From positions 1 to 64,000 of the forward strand of contig CAWHCF010000029.1 in NCBI GenBank assembly GCA_963827655.1: a stretch of 64,000 nt of DNA, read 5' to 3'. The stretch is from an uncultured Acidobacteriota bacterium (GTDB lineage: Bacteria; Acidobacteriota; UBA6911). A program made the translations under genes and the position numbers. Positions 3,129 to 14,102 of the stretch are shown in pieces (the stretch's first letter is position 1; each line of letters begins with the position of its first letter). The notes below the pieces were generated by a model that saw only the letters and a program-made list of their open reading frames with translations, was not told where the DNA came from and made no database searches.

Positions 3129-5574
3129 TCAGTAGCGAGGCGGAAACTCAAGGATATTCCTGACCGTATCGTCGAGGCCAGTCTTTTCCTTAGCTAGGTC
3201 ATCTTGCTCTACGATCACCTTCTGGGCAGACTCCAGTAGAGCAAAAACTGTGGATCCGTCTTCAGGGTAAGACGCCACGCCAATCCGACACGTCACCACA
3301 ACGTTGAACCCTGGAATAGTGCCAATAATTGCGTCGCGGATCTGTTTATTCCAACGCTCGCAATAACGTGCTGCCATCTCCCTACGGGCCCCAGCCATCA
3401 GGGCAACAAACCCCTCATAACCGGACCTTACCAAGATATCTGTTTCTCTGAGTTCCTTTTTCAAAATCTCAGCTATCTCACGTAAGATAGCGTCGCTAGA
3501 GTGAATTCCGTACAATCTAAGAATTTGGGGAGATTTCGCACCTCTACGCAGAGAAGTGACAGAGGCGACCTGTTCCTAGCCGCGAAATCCATCATATGGG
3601 AACCCGCTACTGAAAGATATGTGATCCGGTGTGTTTGAGTTACGGGATCGACTATGTTTTCATGTTCCTCGGATGAGATGGTGCTGCGTTTGAGCGCCTC
3701 CGCTATGCAAGGCGACACTTGGTCAGCGAGCAATTGCAACAGGCTGAGATTTGCCTGGGAGTAGAAGACCGGCGCCTGCGCATAGAGGGATACTGTACCA
3801 AGGCAGTTTCCATCAAAGATCAAAGGTACAACCAGAGTGTCGGTCAGCGAAGTGAAATCACCTTCGACCTCCTGAAACTCCAAGGCCGGTCCTGTATTCA
3901 TAATCGGCCGGCGGTACGCAGCAACCCAGCCGCTGATTCCCTTACCCAGCCCGATACTCAGATTCTGTAGCACATCAGAGAATTTTCCGAGGACATGCGC
4001 AGCCTTTAGCGTTCCTTCTCCATTATCCAGAAAGAAAATGCACGTACTGAATGGAAGAAGCCGCTGGAGTCGGCGACCTAAGATAGGCAGGATATCCGAA
4101 AGTTCGAGATGCTTTCCGAGACTGTTGCAGAACTCGTAAAGAGCCACGAGTTCCGCTGATACTGCTGTTGGAAGAGTGGGAAGGGTAGCAGGAGAGTTGG
4201 CGGAGGAAAGGGCGCGATCGACCTTCTCAAAATAGTCTCGAAACGAGAGTTGGGGGATATTCTTCACAGCCTCTTCTGCTAGCACTTCTAATTCGTCGAT
4301 GTGTTGAACAAACAATTCTACAAGCTCAGGATCGTAGATAGCTTCCCGACTGGCTTCTGAGCAACTCAACAGAATCTTCCATGCTGAAGGGTAGCTTGTA
4401 TGGTCGAGTTGATCGAATCGCGTCAAAGGCGTCTGCAATGGAGAGTATGCGGGCCCCAAGGGGAATCTCAAGTCCTTTAAGCCCATCCGGGTAACCCGTT
4501 CCATCCCATCTCTCGTGATGAGAGCGTACGTATTTTGCCACAGGGAATGGAAACTGGATTTGCTGGAGGATCTCATGACCCGCGGGAGCATGCATCTTCA
4601 TTTTTTCGAACTCTTGCTTGCTCAAGCGGTCCAGGCTTGTTCAGGATGTAGTCATCGATTGCCAACTTTCCAATATCGTGAAGAAGAGACCCGGTTTCAA
4701 TGGCCATCAACTCCTTGGTATCAGTGACTCCACAAACCTTAGCCAAGCCCAAGGCGTATGCTCTGACTCGCCTAATGTGGCCGTAGGTAGTTTGGTCTTT
4801 TGCGTCGACCGCAAGGGCGAGGGATTCGACCGTCCTTAGATACAATTGCTCCTGCTCCTTGAGATGCTTCTCAGCTTCAATAGCTTTAGCTCGGTTTACT
4901 TTGTTAATGCCCCAAACAGCGCCAACGAACGGAGCCATCAGTAGAGGAGCGTACTCGTGGAACGCGCGAAAGAGCAAAAGGAAGGCTCCTGCACACGACG
5001 AGACCAAGAAATCGAGAAAGAGAAGGCGGTAGTTGTTATACCAAACTTGAAAGATTGTTCCTCCAAGTGAAAGTGAGATGGCAGTGGCAACAAGCAACGA
5101 ATTTGACAAGAAAAACGTTAGCGCTAAGCCAAAGGTCGGAAGCAATACGTCTTCTAGATGGTATGAGCCTGAAGGATTCAGCTTATAATACACAAGTCCA
5201 TACAGCCACACGTTAAGAGTTGCAGTGGCGATGTTAAACACGATGCGATGAACGGCTGTTTGGAGGTTTTTCTTCAGCAGCAGTGTCAGGAACGCCATGA
5301 AAAACGTATTAGCCACTATTGCTGGTGGAGTTCCATACATCATGCAGATGCTGATTACAAAAGCATCCCCGATCGTAACCAATGACCTGACGCTTGGAAG
5401 AAAAACAAAGACCGGAACGGTTACCAGCGTAATCCCTGCAAGGACTAACCAGTCATTGCCATAGCTTCCCCTAACGACGTCGACCAATGCCCGCAGGAAT
5501 AATGGAGTGGCGAGCACTACGACTGTGGAAATATAGATCCGGGCTTTTAGCGGAAGAGACCTCCAAGTAGTCAT
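3129..5574 (-). CDS. Membrane-anchored HD-GYP phosphodiesterase with GAF and degenerate GGDEF domains (frameshifted at ~4615, ~4330, ~3510)
   Basis: N-terminal multi-TM region (4573-5574), DAKD..TYGHIRRV, LLHDIGK, HHERWDGTGYPDGL (4326-4625), GAF (GKGISGWVAAYRRP), C-terminal GGDEF-like domain with RSGYEGF in place of RxGGDEF. Confidence 0.85.
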
Positions 5575-5618
5575 ATGTCGCCTGAAACCTCGAATCTGAG
5601 TCTTGCACTAATAGTCAT
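5571..5618 (-). CDS. 15-aa ORF MTISARLRFEVSGDI whose stop overlaps the HD-GYP start (ATGA), or the true N-terminus of that gene separated by a frameshift
   Basis: AAGGAGAAAC immediately precedes ATG at 5618; TGA overlaps ATG at 5574. Confidence 0.4.
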   Translation of the reverse strand: MTISARLRFEVSGDI

Positions 5619-5651
5619 GTTTCTCCTTGCCGGCTATTACTCTTTTACTAA

Positions 5652-5700
5652 CTACCACACTATACCCGAGCGTCGGGGATTTCAATTTCAGAGCGTTCAT
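5652..5700 (-). pseudogene. Degenerate copy of the 19-aa peptide gene (MN..EIEIPDAR..GIVW*)
   Basis: Same CGGAGAAACA-ATG context as the 5795 copy; GAA ATT GAA ATC and GGT ATA GTG TGG TAG are present but in different frames. Confidence 0.55.
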
Positions 5701-5735
5701 TGTTTCTCCGTGATGGTTGAGTTGCCCATTTCGCC

Positions 5736-5795
5736 TTAGTACCAGACTATGGACGGGCTTTCGCGAGTTTCAAGAATTTCGATTTCAGCATTCAT
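5736..5795 (-). CDS. Micropeptide MNAEIEILETRESPSIVWY (19 aa)
   Basis: Translated by hand; RBS GGAGAG upstream; differs from sister copies mainly by synonymous or conservative changes. Confidence 0.8.
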   Translation of the reverse strand: MNAEIEILETRESPSIVWY

Positions 5796-5835
5796 TGTTT
5801 CTCTCCGTTAAATTGACTCGTTAAGGATTCGGTTT

Positions 5836-5895
5836 CTAGTACCAGACTATCGTTGGCGTTTCGCGGGTTTCGAGGATTTCGATTTCGGTCTGCAT
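5836..5895 (-). CDS. Micropeptide MQTEIEILETRETPTIVWY (19 aa; possible upstream start at 5910 adding MEKKE)
   Basis: Translated by hand; GGAG RBS upstream; paralog of 5736-5795. Confidence 0.8.
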   Translation of the reverse strand: MQTEIEILETRETPTIVWY

Positions 5896-5964
5896 CTCTT
5901 TTTTCTCCATCTTTCGTCAGTTTTTGCGTCTTGTTGTTTTCCTTCACCTTGAATCATCACTCCG

Positions 5965-5997
5965 TCACAACCAAAGAATCGCGCTGGGATTCGACAT
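5965..5997 (-). CDS. Micropeptide MSNPSAILWL (10 aa)
   Basis: Strong RBS AAAGGAGG 4 nt upstream of ATG; C-terminal AILWL parallels TIVWY. Confidence 0.7.
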   Translation of the reverse strand: MSNPSAILWL

Positions 5998-6085
5998 GAT
6001 GCCTCCTTTCCAGATTGAGGTTGATTCGATAAGCTCCACGGACCAAGTTTCTCTCCGTTAAATTGACTCGTTAAGGATTCGGTTT

Positions 6086-6145
6086 CTAGTACCAGACTAT
6101 CGTTGGCGTTTCGCGGGTTTCGAGGATTTCGATTTCGGTATGCAT
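6086..6145 (-). CDS. Micropeptide MHTEIEILETRETPTIVWY (19 aa)
   Basis: Duplicate-unit copy of 5836-5895 with Q>H. Confidence 0.8.
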   Translation of the reverse strand: MHTEIEILETRETPTIVWY

Positions 6146-6214
6146 CTCTTTTTTCTCCATGTTTCGTCAGTTTTTACGTCTTGTTGTTTTCCTTCACCTT
6201 GAATCATCACTCCG

Positions 6215-6247
6215 TCACAACCAAAGAATCGCGCTGGGATTCGACAT
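6215..6247 (-). CDS. Micropeptide MSNPSAILWL (10 aa), second copy
   Basis: Identical to 5965-5997 with the same AAAGGAGG RBS. Confidence 0.7.
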   Translation of the reverse strand: MSNPSAILWL

Positions 6248-6325
6248 GATGCCTCCTTTCCAGATTGAGGTTGATTCGATAAGCTCCACGGACCAACTCC
6301 CTCGCGTGAGCCGCCCGAAATCGCA

Positions 6326-6358
6326 TTAAAGCCAAAGAATTGCACCTAGGTTTCTCAT
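6326..6358 (-). CDS. Micropeptide MRNLGAILWL (10 aa)
   Basis: RBS AAAGGAGAG upstream; lies outside the duplication yet keeps AILWL through different codons (GCA ATT CTT TGG CTT TAA vs GCG ATT CTT TGG TTG TGA). Confidence 0.7.
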   Translation of the reverse strand: MRNLGAILWL

Positions 6359-6755
6359 GAGTTCTCTCCTTTCAATGAGTTCTACCCTCAATTGCTTTCG
6401 TCCTGCCGGCCAAGCCTGTCCGGACTCCTCCGCGCAAAGGTACACCACTACCACCTCGGCTTGAGCAAACTTCCCAACCTAAGTTCTACTTTGTTACGAG
6501 AGTTGAGCCTTGCAGCCTCGGCGGCGCTCGTCCGCAGATCGAAGGTCATTAGTGCCAACCAACCGAGAACACCTGGCCGGTCGCCAGAAGGCAGTGGGGG
6601 AAGCTATACAAGAAGTGCTGATAAAGCACGGGTGCTACGCCTCCGGCTCTTGAGCTGTCTGGTTCGCGCTAGCAAAAAAACTGTTGAGCTCGGGTCTGGC
6701 CGTTAAGGTAACCCTTTGCCCGATAATACTTTCTTCATCAACCGCTAAAAATAGA

Positions 6756-6784
6756 AAAATACATTGGCGCCTGGTTACTGTCAA
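6756..6784 (-). promoter_or_regulatory. Candidate sigma70 promoter for the peptide array
   Basis: TTGACA-N17-TATTTT on the minus strand, in an AT-rich intergenic stretch. Confidence 0.4.
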
Positions 6785-6842
6785 ACTTAATCTAATGCCT
6801 TCTTAGAGTTCCATGGCTCGGTCGTGGGATTAGACGGGCGGG

Positions 6843-9230
6843 CTAGGGCAAATACTCCCAGAATTCCGTCCTGAGCCAACGGACCAGTCGGCGCGTAAGA
6901 AGATACGCAATCGTCCTTTTGCCGCAGCGAATTTTCCCCACTCCGGTCATTCCGCCCTTTAGTTTTCCGTCCTGGTTGGCCAGCTCGCTCTTGATCAGCA
7001 CCTTCCGTTCCGTTCCGCTCTCTACAGCCACAGGCGCGATGGTCGTTACACGAGACTCAAAAGAATCGCTCGGAAACCCGCGAACTTTCAGCGTGATCGG
7101 ATACCCAATCTGGACATCCGCAATTTCCTTCTCCGGAATCGGCATGTCGATCACAACCACTCCAAGATTCACTATTTCACAGAACGCGTCTCCTTTCTCG
7201 ATGTAGTCGCCGAGCTTGTTTTTCAGGTACGGCGTGGTGACGACACCCTCAATCGGGCTTCGCAACTTCAGGAGTTCGAGCTGCCGGCCCAGGATGCTCA
7301 GCTTCTCCTCAAGTTTTTTCACATCGGCTGCAGCCGCTTCGATCGATTCCTTGCGTGTCCCGGCCTTCAGAAGGTTGAGCTCGCTCTGGCTGGCTTCTAA
7401 CTCCTTCCGCTTGATCTGCAAGGTGCGGTCAGTATTCTCCTTCAGTACCTGCAACTCCCTCTGAGACTCCGAGAGCTCCTTCGTGCGGACCTCGTACAAC
7501 GTGCTGTCGCGGTCCAGATCGTTCCTTGAGATCAACTCGCCGTCAAATAGTTTCTGACTGCGCTCGTAAGTCTCTTTGGCATTCCGGAGCTCGGCTTCCT
7601 TCTTCGCTATCCGTTCTTGAAGCAGCTTTTCCACCTCTTCGACCCGCGCCGCATTAACGAGTTCCGTCTCCTTCGTATCGATGTTTCTTCTGGCTCGGTC
7701 CAATTCCTCGGGCCGAGCTCCGGCATTTAACAGTTTTAGAACTGCTCTTTTCGATGCGAGCTCCCCCTTGGTTTCTTCGAAGTCATCCACAAGTTGGAGA
7801 TTCTCGATCACCGCCAGAACGTCGCCGCGGTGCACTGGACTTCCTTCATCAACATTTATCTCCTTCAGGGTACCGTCGACCTGCGCGCCAATCACCAGCT
7901 GATCCTGGGAACGAATGGTGAAATCACCAGGAATTTTGAGTTCCCAGGGAAGAAAACTCCCTCCTCCGGCAATCGCCAGTATCAGGAGGAATCGCGGGGC
8001 TTTCCCTAGTCGTGCCGCTAGCGCACCCAGGAACCGTCCCTGTGCCCTGAAGGTCTCTCGACTCGCGGTTTGAACCGAGATCACGCCTACGGCCGAAATA
8101 AGAAGGATCCCCCACATCTGATAATTCTCGATCAACCACCCTCCTATACGACTGATCATCACCGCAAGGAGACCTGCCGAAAAAACGAACGAAGCGATGC
8201 CGTATCTCCAGTAAATCCTCTTTTCCCGTCCGGTCGGCTCCGGCCCGACTGACGGTTCCGTTATCGCCAACAGCCATCGTTTCAATGTGCGCTTCAGGAA
8301 ACTAAACGCTCTCGGCCTCAGATTCGGAACTTCGAGGTAATCGCTCAGGAAGTAATAACCATCGAGCCGGATTAGAGGATTAAAGTTGAACAGCGTCTGA
8401 ATGCCGGAAAAGGCAATCACGGCGAGGCATACCCGGCCGGGAAATGTCTCCGGTGACACAAGTCTCCACGCAACAACTGCTAGCGACCAGATAAAGAGCT
8501 GAACAAATCCTCCGGCAAAAGTGACCCAAAGTCGCTCCCTCTTTCTCAAAAGCCACGCATCACTCACGTTACAATAGAAGGCAGGCATGAAATAGAGCAG
8601 CAGGAACCCCATTTCATCAACCCTGCCGCCAAAATGCTTCAAGGTAAGACCGTGAGCAAACTCATGAACCGTGAGCACGGCAAAAGCACAGACCATGACA
8701 AGCGGAAGAGAGCGCAACTCCAGCAAGCTTCCGACCGATAGCACCAGAGATTCCCAGTTGAGGATCGAGATACACACGGCAACGATTATCGAGATGGAAA
8801 CGAGGGTGACGAAAGAGCCACTGAAGCAAAATCGCAATTTGCGCTCGAGTCTTGTGAGCAAGGCATCCGGGTTGACGGCCCGAATCTTGATCGAGAGAAT
8901 GCTGCCTAGAAATCCGCTTCTCTTTCTCCCAAAACTCTCCAATCTTGACCAGGCCGCCGGCTCATCCAGAAGGAGCAGCTTGCGCAGCTTGTCCACGAAG
9001 TCCTGGACTTGTGCGGCAGTGACGTCGGTTTTCTCTTCCTCTGAAACGCCCTTTGCGAGAGAGACAGAATCTTGTTTTCCGTCGAGCCGGCGCAATACCG
9101 CCGCCTGGATAGGCGCAAAGCGATAGAATTGGCGAAGGATTGGATCTTTAACGATAAGGGGAGAACCCGGTTCCGAGGACTCCGCACGAATCTCCAGATC
9201 CGACCGCAGCTTTGGAAAAGCCCGCTCCAT
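6843..9230 (-). CDS. PqqD/RRE-like domain + M50 (site-2) zinc metalloprotease + HlyD-type membrane-fusion protein fusion
   Basis: GGAGG RBS before ATG 9230; N-terminal KDP..FYRF..VLRRLDGK..FVDKLRKLLLL; HEFAH zinc motif; NFNPLIRLDGY; TM helices; lipoyl-like halves (VDEGSPVHRGDVL; LRSPIEGVV) flanking a long coiled coil. Confidence 0.85.
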   Translation of the reverse strand: MERAFPKLRSDLEIRAESSEPGSPLIVKDPILRQFYRFAPIQAAVLRRLDGKQDSVSLAKGVSEEEKTDVTAAQVQDFVDKLRKLLLLDEPAAWSRLESFGRKRSGFLGSILSIKIRAVNPDALLTRLERKLRFCFSGSFVTLVSISIIVAVCISILNWESLVLSVGSLLELRSLPLVMVCAFAVLTVHEFAHGLTLKHFGGRVDEMGFLLLYFMPAFYCNVSDAWLLRKRERLWVTFAGGFVQLFIWSLAVVAWRLVSPETFPGRVCLAVIAFSGIQTLFNFNPLIRLDGYYFLSDYLEVPNLRPRAFSFLKRTLKRWLLAITEPSVGPEPTGREKRIYWRYGIASFVFSAGLLAVMISRIGGWLIENYQMWGILLISAVGVISVQTASRETFRAQGRFLGALAARLGKAPRFLLILAIAGGGSFLPWELKIPGDFTIRSQDQLVIGAQVDGTLKEINVDEGSPVHRGDVLAVIENLQLVDDFEETKGELASKRAVLKLLNAGARPEELDRARRNIDTKETELVNAARVEEVEKLLQERIAKKEAELRNAKETYERSQKLFDGELISRNDLDRDSTLYEVRTKELSESQRELQVLKENTDRTLQIKRKELEASQSELNLLKAGTRKESIEAAAADVKKLEEKLSILGRQLELLKLRSPIEGVVTTPYLKNKLGDYIEKGDAFCEIVNLGVVVIDMPIPEKEIADVQIGYPITLKVRGFPSDSFESRVTTIAPVAVESGTERKVLIKSELANQDGKLKGGMTGVGKIRCGKRTIAYLLTRRLVRWLRTEFWEYLP

Positions 9231-9442: not shown

Positions 9443-10277
9443 ATGGGCATGTTTTCAAAAAAGGCTTTTGCACTTCCGCTGATCGCAATGTTGCTTGGCC
9501 TGTCCGCTTGCAGCAAGAAAGCAGAGGATGCGCCGGCGCCTGATTCGGCCCCAGCTGCCTCAAAGCCCGTCTTCAAACCCGGAGAAATGGTTTTGATTCC
9601 CGCCGGCGAGTTCATTTTCGGCGCAAATGACAAGGATGCGCCGGCCGTGGGCCCGGAGCAGAAAATCACGCTGCCCGCTTACTGGATCGACAAATACGAA
9701 GTTACCAACGGCGAGTATCTGGATTTCTCCATCAAGGGCGGCTATGCGAGTGAAGGCAAGAATTGGCGACTTTTCTTCACGCCCCAAAAGGTCAACTACC
9801 CGGTTGTGAATATCACCTGGAACGATTGTCTTGAGTATTGCAAATGGGCGGGAAAGAGGCTTGCCACAGAAGAAGAGTGGGAAAAAGCGGCTCGCGGTTC
9901 CGATGGGAAACGTTATCCGTGGGGAGACAAGTGGGAAGGGGGTCGCAGCAACACTTTCGAAGCCGGCGCTACGCGCGCCCGCCGAGGTAAATCAGTTTGA
10001 TGACGTCAGTCAATACGGGGTGCATGATCTGTTGGGTAACGTCCAGGAATGGACTGGAAGTTGGTATAAGGCCTACAAGGGAAACACCAAACCCAATCCC
10101 GACTTTGGCGAAAAGTATCGTGTCCTGCGGGGTTTGTCTTCAAATTTTTATGGCAGCCGAGGACATGTCTGGGACCGGTCGGCCTATCTGCCCAAGGCTC
10201 TTTATGGCTACGGCTGTCGCTGCGCGAAAGATGCTACCGCGGAAGAAGCCGCGAAAGCAGGCAGATCGGGTAGCTGA
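9443..10277 (+). CDS. Formylglycine-generating enzyme (SUMF1/FGE-sulfatase) family lipoprotein, one frameshift near 9970
   Basis: Lipobox LSAC; IDKYEVTN, PVVNITW, RLATEEEWEKAARG, YGVHDLLGNVQEW, GCRCAKD. Confidence 0.85.
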
Positions 10278-12983: not shown

Positions 12984-14102
12984 CTACATTAGTTTTTCCA
13001 GAAATTTGTTCCAGTTGTCGTCAGGGAACATCTTCTGGCAAACAGAACGGTACTTAACAAATTTCTTCTTATCACCCAATTTGAAATAGCTGAGCGCCAT
13101 GCGGAAATAGAAAAGGTGATCGTTGGGAAAGCGGTTGGCGAGCTTCAGCGTTTTCTCCCCTTCCAGCGCGGCATCCCGGTAGCGACCGAGCTCGTAGTAG
13201 TTGTCGGTCAGGTAGCCTCGGAGTTCAGCCTTCTCCACTTTGTTTCTTTGCGGGCGCCGAAGGGCCTCCAGGATCAACAGCAACGATTTCTCATACTGCT
13301 CAAGGCGAAAATGGCAACGCGCAATTTTGGCGTGCAACCAGGTCAGGTTCTCCCTCTTCCCCGTGATCTGTTTCAGTTCGAGGATCTTCTGGTACGTATC
13401 AAGCGCCATCTGATCATTCGTCAGGTTGTAATGACAGTCGGCCACCTTGAGATAAATCTCGTCACGGCGCTCGAATTCGGGTTCCAGCTCGAGAACCTTG
13501 GAAAAGTACTTCAAGGCCTCCGGATATTGCTTGAGACTCAGATGATTGTTCGCCATGCTTTCGTACAGGTAGGCAAGGCCGGGATCATTGTCACTGAGCA
13601 CTTCGATCGCTTTCTGAGAGTACTGGATAGCCTGATCGTGTTTGCCCAGAGCTTCGTAGTTCCGGCTGATTCCCGCATACAGCATCCACCGGGTATCTTT
13701 CTCCTGACTTTCGATGTACTGCTCGCATACTCTTCTCGCTTCGAGAGACTTCGCTGTTTTCCCGTGATATTCCAAGAGCGATCCGAGATGAAAGTAAACA
13801 AAGCCGTACATGTCCGCCATGAATTCGGGCTTGTCGGGCTCGAATAGCTGAGCGGATTTCAGCAACTGCCGCAGGGCCTCGCGGTCATTTCCCAGGTTGA
13901 ACTGGCAAATCCCGATCCGCCCGGCGAAATAGGCCTGCACATTCGGCTGCTTCTCAAGCTTCAGCGCTCGAGCATAGTGCTCGCTGGCGCCGCTGTAGTT
14001 TTCCTTTTCAAAGAGCGACTCTGCGTAAGAATCAAGAAGAACAATCTTTTCTTGGTTGGAGCCGGAGCGCGCTAGCCTGCTGTTGAATTCTCGCTGGTCC
14101 AT
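12984..14102 (-). CDS. Tetratricopeptide repeat protein
   Basis: Multiple TPR-like repeats (e.g. ALKYFSKVLELEP). Confidence 0.8.
   Translation of the reverse strand: MDQREFNSRLARSGSNQEKIVLLDSYAESLFEKENYSGASEHYARALKLEKQPNVQAYFAGRIGICQFNLGNDREALRQLLKSAQLFEPDKPEFMADMYGFVYFHLGSLLEYHGKTAKSLEARRVCEQYIESQEKDTRWMLYAGISRNYEALGKHDQAIQYSQKAIEVLSDNDPGLAYLYESMANNHLSLKQYPEALKYFSKVLELEPEFERRDEIYLKVADCHYNLTNDQMALDTYQKILELKQITGKRENLTWLHAKIARCHFRLEQYEKSLLLILEALRRPQRNKVEKAELRGYLTDNYYELGRYRDAALEGEKTLKLANRFPNDHLFYFRMALSYFKLGDKKKFVKYRSVCQKMFPDDNWNKFLEKLM

Follow-up and report, generated by a model that had tools for sequence, protein, structure and literature searches.

What is encoded by an array of genes for peptides of 10 and 19 amino acids (aa) that lies between the gene of a putative peptide-processing protease and the gene of a cyclic di-GMP (c-di-GMP) enzyme? 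Genes of 8–23 codons escape gene callers, and the array that raises this question was found in an uncultured Acidobacteriota bacterium (GTDB lineage Bacteria; Acidobacteriota; UBA6911), within a stretch of 64,000 nucleotides (nt) that we call the window (assembly GCA_963827655.1, contig CAWHCF010000029.1, positions 1 to 64,000). All features of the array are on the minus strand, where they follow one another 5′ to 3′ as a fusion gene, a 484-nt spacer, six mini-genes, a decayed copy and a membrane protein gene that starts at 5574. The reading that we prefer, and to which we give a probability of about one half, is that this cassette, specific to one Acidobacteriota family, performs leader-guided cleavage and export of very short tryptophan-containing peptides that are probably signals.

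Two families of mini-genes

The window array consists of three genes for 19-aa peptides (M..EIEILETRE[ST]P[ST]IVWY, family B) and, interleaved with them, three genes for 10-aa peptides (M...[GS]AILWL, family A), and a Shine-Dalgarno (SD) site is present at all six.

6358..6326, minus strand: family A peptide gene 1, MRNLGAILWL, 10 aa, SD AAAGGAGAG
6247..6215, minus strand: family A peptide gene 2, MSNPSAILWL, 10 aa, SD AAAGGAGG, within a 250-nt duplication
6145..6086, minus strand: family B peptide gene 1, MHTEIEILETRETPTIVWY, 19 aa
5997..5965, minus strand: family A peptide gene 3, MSNPSAILWL, duplicate of gene 2
5895..5836, minus strand: family B peptide gene 2, MQTEIEILETRETPTIVWY
5795..5736, minus strand: family B peptide gene 3, MNAEIEILETRESPSIVWY, outside the duplication
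about 5700..5650, minus strand: decayed fourth family B copy, SD and ATG kept, frame broken by a 2-nt insertion and a 10-nt deletion (from alignment)

An earlier sequence-only reading of this DNA had proposed the three 19-aa genes, each with a GGAG ribosome-binding site. Both claims were confirmed, since the three copies stand at the positions given, all on the minus strand, and GGAG is found 7–9 nt 5′ of the ATG in each of them. Its inventory was right as far as it went and was incomplete: the three interleaved 10-aa genes had been missed, and the decayed fourth copy, the array promoter, the leader RNA and the downstream c-di-GMP enzyme gene were likewise not in it.

A repeat search showed a tandem duplication of 250 nt (5797-6046 and 6047-6296, 99% identical) that contains family B copies 1 and 2, and the similarity of these two near-identical copies is thus explained by a recent duplication. 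The copy at 5736-5795 lies outside the repeat, which spans 5797-6296, as had been claimed, and it shares 80–81% DNA identity with the other two. Compared codon by codon with copy 2, copy 3 carries four synonymous changes (ATC/ATT, CTC/CTT, ACC/ACT, CCA/CCG), a TAG/TAA change of the stop codon and four replacements (Q>N, T>A, and T>S twice), in agreement with the synonymous changes, stop change and T>S swaps described before. In the 8.18-Mb genome of the window, a six-frame scan found the family A and family B motifs confined to this one locus.

Relatives were sampled as 44 loci that encode relatives of the fusion protein, taken from a one-genome-per-species collection. Nearly all of them are titled Acidobacteria or Acidobacteriota, with one Terriglobia, one Deltaproteobacteria, two Vicinamibacteria, two Marinacidobacterales and two Gemmataceae-type titles as exceptions. 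The fusion protein is at least 48% identical at 37 of the 44 loci, for 23 of which 1300 nt or more of downstream sequence is available, and 31–37% identical at seven loci. Among the 23, family A was found at 21, family B at 21 and both at 20; both families lie 3′ of the fusion gene, with every copy on the protease strand and an SD site 5–10 nt upstream. One locus (L046) has neither family, one (L033) has family B only, and one (L049) has family A together with a B-like peptide that the pattern missed, and is hence scored as A-only. In these relatives, family A peptides are 8 or 10 aa long with a C-terminal [AG]ILW[LF], and family B peptides are 19–23 aa long, with MQTEIEILExRExP followed by a short core. 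The recurrence of the 19-aa family at the same place is far beyond chance.

The variation among these copies is that of coding DNA. Over the first 14 codons of family B (35 distinct DNA versions of 42), entropy is 0.27, 0.17 and 0.97 at codon positions 1, 2 and 3, and over the last five codons of family A (34 distinct versions of 46) the corresponding values are 0.19, 0.32 and 1.08, while the family A stop codon, at one fixed place, is TAA in 12, TAG in 10 and TGA in 12. Because variation falls at third codon positions and all three stops occur at a fixed place, this DNA is selected as coding, and the codon pattern is that of selection on a translated product, unlike that of an RNA element or an overlapping frame. 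Both mini-gene families are therefore real and selected as translated coding sequence, and it is highly probable that the peptides are translated. Selection on the peptide, which the sequence-only reading had suspected from the three family B copies, was thereby borne out, and the codon-position statistics speak for coding where that reading had named RNA structure or an overlapping frame as the competing source of conservation.

An origin of the conservation in a repeated RNA or DNA element or in an overlapping frame, with no genes at all, is disfavoured and extremely improbable, given third-position wobble, interchangeable stops, fixed ATG/SD spacing and synonymous Leu, Ile, Pro and Arg swaps across 26–30 loci, together with the lack of any Rfam match. 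The only window ORF (open reading frame) of at least 90 aa in the leader/array region (6392..6706, plus strand) has 0 homologues in the 44 loci. Such an origin could appeal to the real structured RNA of the region, though that RNA lies upstream of the peptides, and to the descent of two near-identical window copies from the recent 250-nt duplication.

The distribution of the leader follows one bacterial family. A pattern search for homologues had been suggested as a check, and the strict back-translated family B leader pattern matched 36 of the 51 genomes of the window's GTDB family (f1), in 7 of 11 genera and in 21 of 28 high-quality genomes, with 0 matches in the 51 for a reversed control pattern. 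Across an even phylum sample of 401 genomes, the pattern was present in three of six f1 genomes and in the window genome, and in 0 of 394 elsewhere (control 0). Nine pattern-negative f1 genomes were inspected: two have a variant leader (EIEV), in six a contig end interrupts the locus, and G210, the source of L046, is truly without the array. The part of the fusion protein that comprises the RRE and the M50 protease, described below, is present in 48 of the 51. Exact look-up of 10 peptides of at least 20 aa in about 15 billion proteins returned one on record, as an artificially extended 36-aa ORF named "hypothetical protein", and no NCBIfam model matched the 24-aa window ORF that holds a family B peptide at E ≤ 1.

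Contigs from RNA libraries of soil and rhizosphere (two studies) match the array and leader at 90–99% identity, for example at 5630-5780, 5791-5942, 6158-6306 and 6596-6811 in one study and at 6120-6270 and 6507-6721 in the other. The runs were chosen using the array as query, and the contigs, from which no level, strand or ends can be read and which may include DNA carried in RNA libraries, are compatible with transcription and are no proof of it; stretches of the window that lack such contigs carry no information either way.

Within family B, two parts of the peptide behave differently. Alignment of 25 peptides showed M1, I5, E6, L8, E9, R11, E12 and P14 to be invariant, and the N-terminal 14 residues form a highly conserved leader, M-Q-T-E-I-E-I-L-E-x-R-E-x-P. 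After the invariant Pro follows a variable, hydrophobic C-terminal core of 5–9 residues in which Trp is always present (x-[IV]-[ILVF]-W-x...), so that the layout of leader and short core put forward from the window alone also holds in the relatives. The 42 family B peptides of 26 loci contain 23 distinct cores, all with Trp, and a single residue follows the Trp in 36 of the 42; the three window peptides all end in Tyr. Paralogous B copies of one genome share the same core despite differing leaders (L011, L024, L042), whereas cores vary between genomes. Family A has little such variety, ending in AILWL in 32 cases, GILWL in 8, GILWF in 2 and IILWL in 1. Several 10-aa family A peptides have a Pro four residues before ILW, as in family B, and because of this shared Pro position family A, which by sequence looks like family B minus the leader, may represent family B peptides that lost it.

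Promoter and leader RNA

Two further elements of the array stand in the spacer that separates the protease gene from the first peptide gene and measures 243–843 nt at 31 loci.

6784..6756, minus strand: sigma-70-like promoter of the array, TTGACA, 17 nt, TATTTT, 10 of 12 consensus matches
6628..6506, minus strand: leader RNA, divergent copy, found with covariance model R1 at 11.6 bits, E 0.038, filters off

Alignment of the 31 spacers showed a conserved A/T-rich stretch and TTGACA-N17-TAnnnT. Between this promoter and the first peptide gene lies a conserved structured RNA of about 125 nt (for example L017:8651-8777, and at 23 other loci). RNAalifold predicted no pairs on a MAFFT alignment of 29 leader sequences, owing to misalignment of the variable hairpin, and a 7-sequence seed was used instead to build the covariance model R1, whose consensus has 33 pairs. 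Strong R1 hits were obtained in 24 of 41 sources, one per locus and always between the protease gene and the peptides, and one hit per genome was obtained in 27 of the 51 f1 genomes. R1 gave no hit in G210, G063 or G405, which by itself does not argue against the element there. In the resulting 24-sequence alignment, which is fitted to the model, 93.0% of cells pair compared with 83.9% in shuffled alignments (0 of 500 reach the observed value) and 28–49% in slid controls. Fitted in the same way, 18 of the 33 pairs are changed on both sides (shuffled mean 11.1), with 81 such cells (shuffled mean 24.9), and 11 of the 12 pairs of the long hairpin covary. An unpaired UUCUCGAAUAG is conserved between two helices. 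Rfam returned 0 matches for window 4500-7500 (E ≤ 1), for six loci (gathering score) and for L017 8380-9100 (E ≤ 10). These results indicated that the array has a dedicated conserved promoter and a previously undescribed covarying leader RNA. As to base composition in the leader/array region (window 5560-6842 and the spacers of 31 loci), G+C content is 0.38–0.58 in the spacers, below the 0.59 of the genome.

The position of the mini-ORFs, between a dedicated promoter with its structured leader RNA and the gene of the presumptive receptor, would also suit cis-regulatory upstream ORFs, whose arrest or attenuation peptides would act with the leader RNA to control the downstream c-di-GMP enzyme gene and yield no released product. 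Eight-codon ORFs are within the size range of known regulatory leader peptides, and a family A ORF is the last before the receptor gene in L011, L028 and L042. We nevertheless regard this as improbable. A locus may have anything from one to five copies, with A and B in varying order, a strong SD site precedes every single ORF, and the cores, variable between genomes and identical within one, are unlike an arrest motif fitted to the ribosomal tunnel. No tandem codons for a single amino acid, of the kind known from classical attenuators, are present, and the B leader resembles a motif for recognition by an RRE, with an RRE protease as a conserved neighbour.

Putative processing protein, candidate receptor and possible fate of the peptides

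The protein encoded upstream of the array is a fusion of an RRE (the recognition element of RiPPs, peptides made by the ribosome and modified after translation), a site-2 protease and a HlyD adaptor.

6843..9230, minus strand: RRE / M50 (site-2) protease / HlyD adaptor fusion gene, 795 aa from the ATG at 9230
8960..9230, minus strand: RRE (PqqD-like winged-helix) domain, about residues 1-90 of the 795-aa form

The mechanical ORF begins at TTG 9320 (825 aa), and relatives align only from about residue 31. Residues 47-410 have as their best NCBIfam match daptide_HExxH NF041824, the daptide leader protease (217.4 bits, E 3.2e-64), and the second match is the YydH/LiaK epipeptide protease (55.1 bits, E 8.4e-15, cutoff 225). 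The M50 motifs are intact in the window protein, as HEFAHG (HExxH) and NFNPLIRLDG (NxxPxxxxDG), with H189, E190, H193, N282, P285, D290 and G291 invariant in alignments of 20 and 28 sequences; Pfam PF02163 is not reported for the window protein and is precomputed for several relatives. In the C-terminal half, Pfam identifies HlyD_D23, HlyD_3 and Biotin_lipoyl_2, and the HlyD part scores above the family cutoffs given in brackets for TIGR01730 RND_mfp (100.4 bits; 94.9), PF16576 (82.4; 30) and PF13437 (48.8; 22.2). More than 1651 database relatives exist; among the best 120, query coverage is 77–100% (most 96%) and identity 53–96%, and those with a source name are mostly Acidobacteria metagenome-assembled genomes or JGI metagenomes.

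An AlphaFold model of residues 1-430 had a mean predicted local distance difference test score (pLDDT) of 81.5. For its membrane part, the top Foldseek hits were MjS2P of M. jannaschii (3b4r; E 4.5e-3, probability 1.00, target-normalised template-modelling score, TMt, 0.45) and SpoIVFB (8vjl; E 0.047). The RRE domain was modelled as strands 13-16, 25-29 and 34-38 followed by helices 40-48, 55-66 and 72-84, with pLDDT 73–90, and it superposes on leader-bound TbiB1 (5v1u/5v1v; TMt 0.68–0.71), lasso B1 (6jx3; 0.76) and PqqD (5sxy; 0.62), with root-mean-square deviations of 2.8–3.5 over 87–91 columns, probabilities of 0.99–1.00 and E 0.15–0.3. The PqqD family PF05402 matched 17 of 24 N-terminal domains of relatives at E ≤ 1 (best E 3.1e-5). 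The RRE-like domain that had been proposed in the neighbouring protein is thus supported by both profile and model. A profile of the RRE alignment, searched against PDB sequences, had as its sole match a chance ribosomal protein at E 1.

The daptide match of the protease has a counterpart in the peptides. The leader motif of daptide precursors is ELExMEAP, and their processing enzyme, MpaP, is an RRE fused to a site-2 protease, according to excerpts of the daptide paper (bioRxiv 10.1101/2023.03.08.531785), which also give an average of 2.3 short ORFs nearby and removal of the leader by RRE-dependent MpaP. The likeness of the B leader to IEELEERIAP-type motifs, noted in the sequence-only reading, therefore has a documented counterpart in a leader that such a fusion protease processes. 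By sequence, the window protease and leader look like relatives of the daptide pair, and it is likely that family B is a substrate of the RRE-M50 protein. A complex prediction of the L049 RRE-M50 part (430 aa, 28-row alignment) with the 39-aa B-like ORF of the same locus (25-row alignment), which is longer than the true 19-aa peptides, scored 0.19 against a mark of 0.32 and speaks neither for nor against binding.

Several further homologues were seen. The window genome has a second M50-HlyD paralogue (G000:C38:16857-18971, minus strand; L002, L003 and L005), 45% identical in the M50 core and maybe frameshifted, with no leader-like small ORFs in the 16 kb scanned around it. At L038 (6001-7377 and 11836-12089) the protease match extends only to residue 464, with the peptide genes about 4.4 kb beyond it, which suggests an insertion or rearrangement in the HlyD half. 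Distant fusion homologues (Vicinamibacteria, Marinacidobacterales and Gemmataceae; 31–37%) were rejected as sources on the peptides, since they have no leader-like small ORFs and stand among unrelated neighbours, such as a class-V aminotransferase, CorA and DUF1501. In two Marinacidobacterales and one uncultured Acidobacteriota (L041:8501-10330, L043:8945-10351, L047:8322-9626), the distant M50-HlyD gene is followed by a class-V aminotransferase gene and no array, and two Vicinamibacteria loci (L044:4616-4717, L051:1692-1793) share a 33-aa ORF with a strong SD site, MPDDTQALQAYHHK..., about 230–460 nt 3′ of the distant M50-HlyD homologue, which may be a different small partner peptide.

Downstream of the array lies the gene of the candidate receptor.

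3129..5574, minus strand: membrane sensor / HD-GYP / GAF / degenerate-GGDEF gene, in three frames in the window (5574..4573, 4591..3473, 3515..3129)

In most of the relatives listed this gene is a single ORF of 796–827 aa, to the consecutive parts of which the window pieces match. The protein has a multi-pass membrane N-terminus followed by HD-GYP, GAF and GGDEF domains (Pfam HD_5, GAF and GGDEF on the L022 and L024 orthologues); in the L022 orthologue HD_5 matches at E 1.6e-33, HDIGK...HHERWDGKGYP is intact, and GHHGF replaces GGDEF. The membrane N-terminus of that orthologue (L022:9167-9900, residues 1-245 of P0121) is MASE9-like by language-model features (score 0.95), and Pfam hmmscan gave no MASE9 match. 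The window copy loses its reading frame after about residue 324, past HDIGK and before the GYP motif. An FGE-sulfatase-like gene (FGE, formylglycine-generating enzyme) at 9443-10277 on the plus strand is also split over two frames in the window and is a single ORF of about 280 aa in relatives, and the two split genes together suggest indel assembly errors or gene decay.

A partial Mantel test over 15 loci, with protease identity controlled, related similarity of the B cores to identity of the receptor membrane domain (r 0.27, permutation p 0.024), with no such relation for the HD-GYP part (r 0.08, p 0.28) and none for the GAF-GGDEF part (r −0.08, p 0.72). As an exploratory result that is nominal in one of three tests and comes from related genomes, this correlation is a hint only. 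The conserved neighbours of the cassette are the FGE-sulfatase-like protein, a PUA-SAM (S-adenosylmethionine) methyltransferase of the rRNA/tRNA type, a CCA-adding enzyme, a TPR protein and the HD-GYP protein.

In the reading that we prefer, the array would be transcribed from its own promoter through the structured leader RNA, and the cytoplasmic RRE of the fusion protein would bind the family B leader, as the MpaP RRE is held to do with ELExMEAP. The attached site-2 (M50) intramembrane metalloprotease would then cut near the conserved Pro, and the fused HlyD-type periplasmic adaptor would couple release to envelope export, with partners encoded elsewhere. The products would be unmodified or lightly modified penta- to nonapeptides, most likely acting as extracellular signals: the membrane sensor of the neighbouring HD-GYP phosphodiesterase would recognise the genome-specific B core, and the conserved family A peptide would serve as a common co-signal or antagonist. 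Leader binding, cleavage site, processing, export, sensing and the identity of the receptor are all steps that we infer. We favour a signalling role because genome-specific cores are combined with a conserved leader, a second, leaderless peptide is present and a membrane c-di-GMP enzyme is adjacent, and also, by analogy, because of the Gram-positive Eep precedent discussed below. Signalling specifically through the HD-GYP protein is possible, and we hold it only tentatively. Somewhat more doubtful still is the full peptide-pheromone circuit in a Gram-negative soil phylum, in which a genome's own B core, released by the adaptor-fused RRE protease, and its leaderless, heptapeptide-like A partner, conserved across the family, would be sensed by the HD-GYP protein and change c-di-GMP turnover, with the leader RNA gating expression in the manner of a riboswitch.

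The same processing steps could also serve a different product. Secreted antimicrobial or otherwise bioactive RiPP precursors would be cleaved and exported likewise; the FGE-sulfatase-like protein, or an enzyme whose gene lies elsewhere, would modify the Trp core, and the HD-GYP protein would be a mere syntenic neighbour. An RRE with a leader and a hypervariable core is a hallmark of RiPPs, 1–5 precursor copies per locus are typical of them, and the daptides, whose protease and leader are the closest relatives of those studied here, are hemolysins and bacteriocins as described in two papers (10.1101/2023.03.08.531785; PMC12749797). Core diversity between genomes would also fit an arms race. 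The FGE-sulfatase-domain gene is found upstream, divergently transcribed, at 34 of the 44 loci; it nonetheless belongs to a generally syntenic region, lies about 1.9 kb away in L049, and would have no common target for formylglycine-type chemistry, as only a few cores contain Cys. No recognised tailoring enzyme adjoins the array, no immunity or ABC transporter gene was seen, and five-residue cores are very short for a membrane-active antimicrobial, so that we judge this explanation unlikely.

Family A raises a further alternative, as it has no leader and hardly anything to cleave. Both kinds of peptide could stay unprocessed inside the cell that makes them, as micro-proteins or as ligands either of the HD-GYP protein, at its GAF or membrane domain, or of the protease, while the M50-HlyD protein has another substrate. 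The weak covariation of B core and receptor membrane domain would fit binding from either side of the membrane, and L046 is a case of the protease without the array. This account, however, leaves the conserved, acidic, Pro-ended B leader without a role, whereas processing is what the RRE domain and the likeness of that leader to the daptide one suggest, and we consider it distinctly unlikely.

Several observations weigh against leader-guided cleavage and export of signals. Binding, cleavage and product are candidate steps, and family A, being leaderless, is left with its handling unexplained by the RRE model; of the interpretation first made from sequence, the coding selection, the architecture and the RRE-like neighbour have stood, but it leaves out an 8–10-aa family that any model must explain. 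The domain assignments have their own limits: the window protease, at 217.4 bits, does not reach the NF041824 equivalog cutoff of 300, its RRE domain scores 15.3 bits (E 0.025) against PF05402, below the gathering cutoff of 23.4, and the whole-model Foldseek E-values are weak, from 0.0045 to 0.3 with none ≤ 0.001. The seven loci with distant protease homologues (31–37% identity) have no such peptides, and L046 keeps the protease gene with no array or receptor at that place. Among the conserved neighbours we saw neither a modification enzyme nor a transporter or outer-membrane component that could partner the HlyD part. The whole region, including unrelated housekeeping genes (the CCA-adding enzyme and the rRNA-type methyltransferase), is syntenic in family f1, so that adjacency is weak evidence of a functional link. 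Finally, the frameshifted gene of the candidate receptor in the window reflects either assembly errors or a dispensable receptor.

Conservation of the cassette is seen in soil Acidobacteriota that are abundant and for the most part uncultured, and whose cell-cell signalling and small natural products are very little known. Leader-guided cleavage here would take the RRE/site-2 protease logic of daptides into a new phylum and widen it by a protease-adaptor fusion and by cores down to five residues without tailoring genes, and the array contributes an undescribed structured RNA that is well supported by covariation. It also provides a testable candidate for peptide signalling tied to c-di-GMP in a diderm bacterium. 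If the pheromone circuit is true, kin or quorum information would be turned directly into c-di-GMP turnover, and as the peptides are trivial to synthesise, the hypothesis is directly testable. There is a real, if unproven, chance that the circuit as a whole is new.

Comparison with known systems

In the full-text literature searched, to which the daptide supplements with their lists of RRE-protease fusions, possibly including acidobacterial ones, did not belong, neither these peptides nor an RRE-M50-HlyD fusion nor the cassette was found described. Among the papers listed, the motifs EIEILE, AILWL and IVWY did not occur, and the listed hits to ILWL were lentil accession codes; excerpts of PMC8939145 mention HlyD and PqqD only in other contexts.

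Functional genes of fewer than ten codons have a precedent in the biarylitides, whose minimal RiPP precursor genes of five codons stand beside a crosslinking P450; unlike there, no tailoring enzyme is evident beside the present array. The YydH/LiaK epipeptide protease is an M50-type RiPP leader protease, as here, although the score of the window protein is far below its cutoff, and a radical-SAM epimerase gene such as those systems have was not seen near the window array.

Considering the products, there is an analogy with the pheromones matured by Eep in streptococci and enterococci (SHP/Rgg, ComS/ComR and the sex pheromones), which are likewise encoded by very short genes and release an active C-terminal hydrophobic product after M50 maturation. 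Excerpts of a published account (PMC7564271) describe the M50 protease Eep as maturing both short hydrophobic pheromones and inhibitors encoded by short genes, so that activator and inhibitor peptides can coexist, and propose an interplay of protease and exporter. Unlike the system described here, Eep has neither an RRE nor a HlyD fusion and works in Gram-positive hosts. Receptors of Eep pheromones are cytoplasmic RRNPP regulators reached after Opp/Ami import, whereas the only candidate here is the membrane HD-GYP enzyme; no RRNPP-type cytoplasmic TPR receptor was found adjacent to the array, the TPR protein at 12984..14102 being about 7 kb off in a generally syntenic region.

Daptides (MpaP/DapP; Actinomycetota and Bacillota) share most with the cassette, as in both an N-terminal RRE is fused to an M50 intramembrane metalloprotease and several short precursor genes adjoin the protease gene. 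In the excerpted daptide text, the leader motif is ELExMEAP, which like ILExRExP here is acidic and Pro-ended, with L, E, E and P in register. The differences are no less marked. The DapB, DapC, DapD and DapM tailoring genes of daptides, for an oxidative decarboxylase pair, an aminotransferase and a methyltransferase, are not among the conserved neighbours here, where the search covered the neighbourhood and not the rest of the genome. The C-terminal Thr that is invariant in daptides, according to the same excerpts, ends only 10 of the 42 family B peptides. The 2023 daptide paper contains neither "HlyD" nor "Acidobacteria", while the protease here is additionally fused to a HlyD adaptor and belongs to the Acidobacteriota. 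In place of the long aliphatic stretch of daptides, the cassette has cores of 5–9 aa, and beside them it encodes a second, leaderless peptide family.

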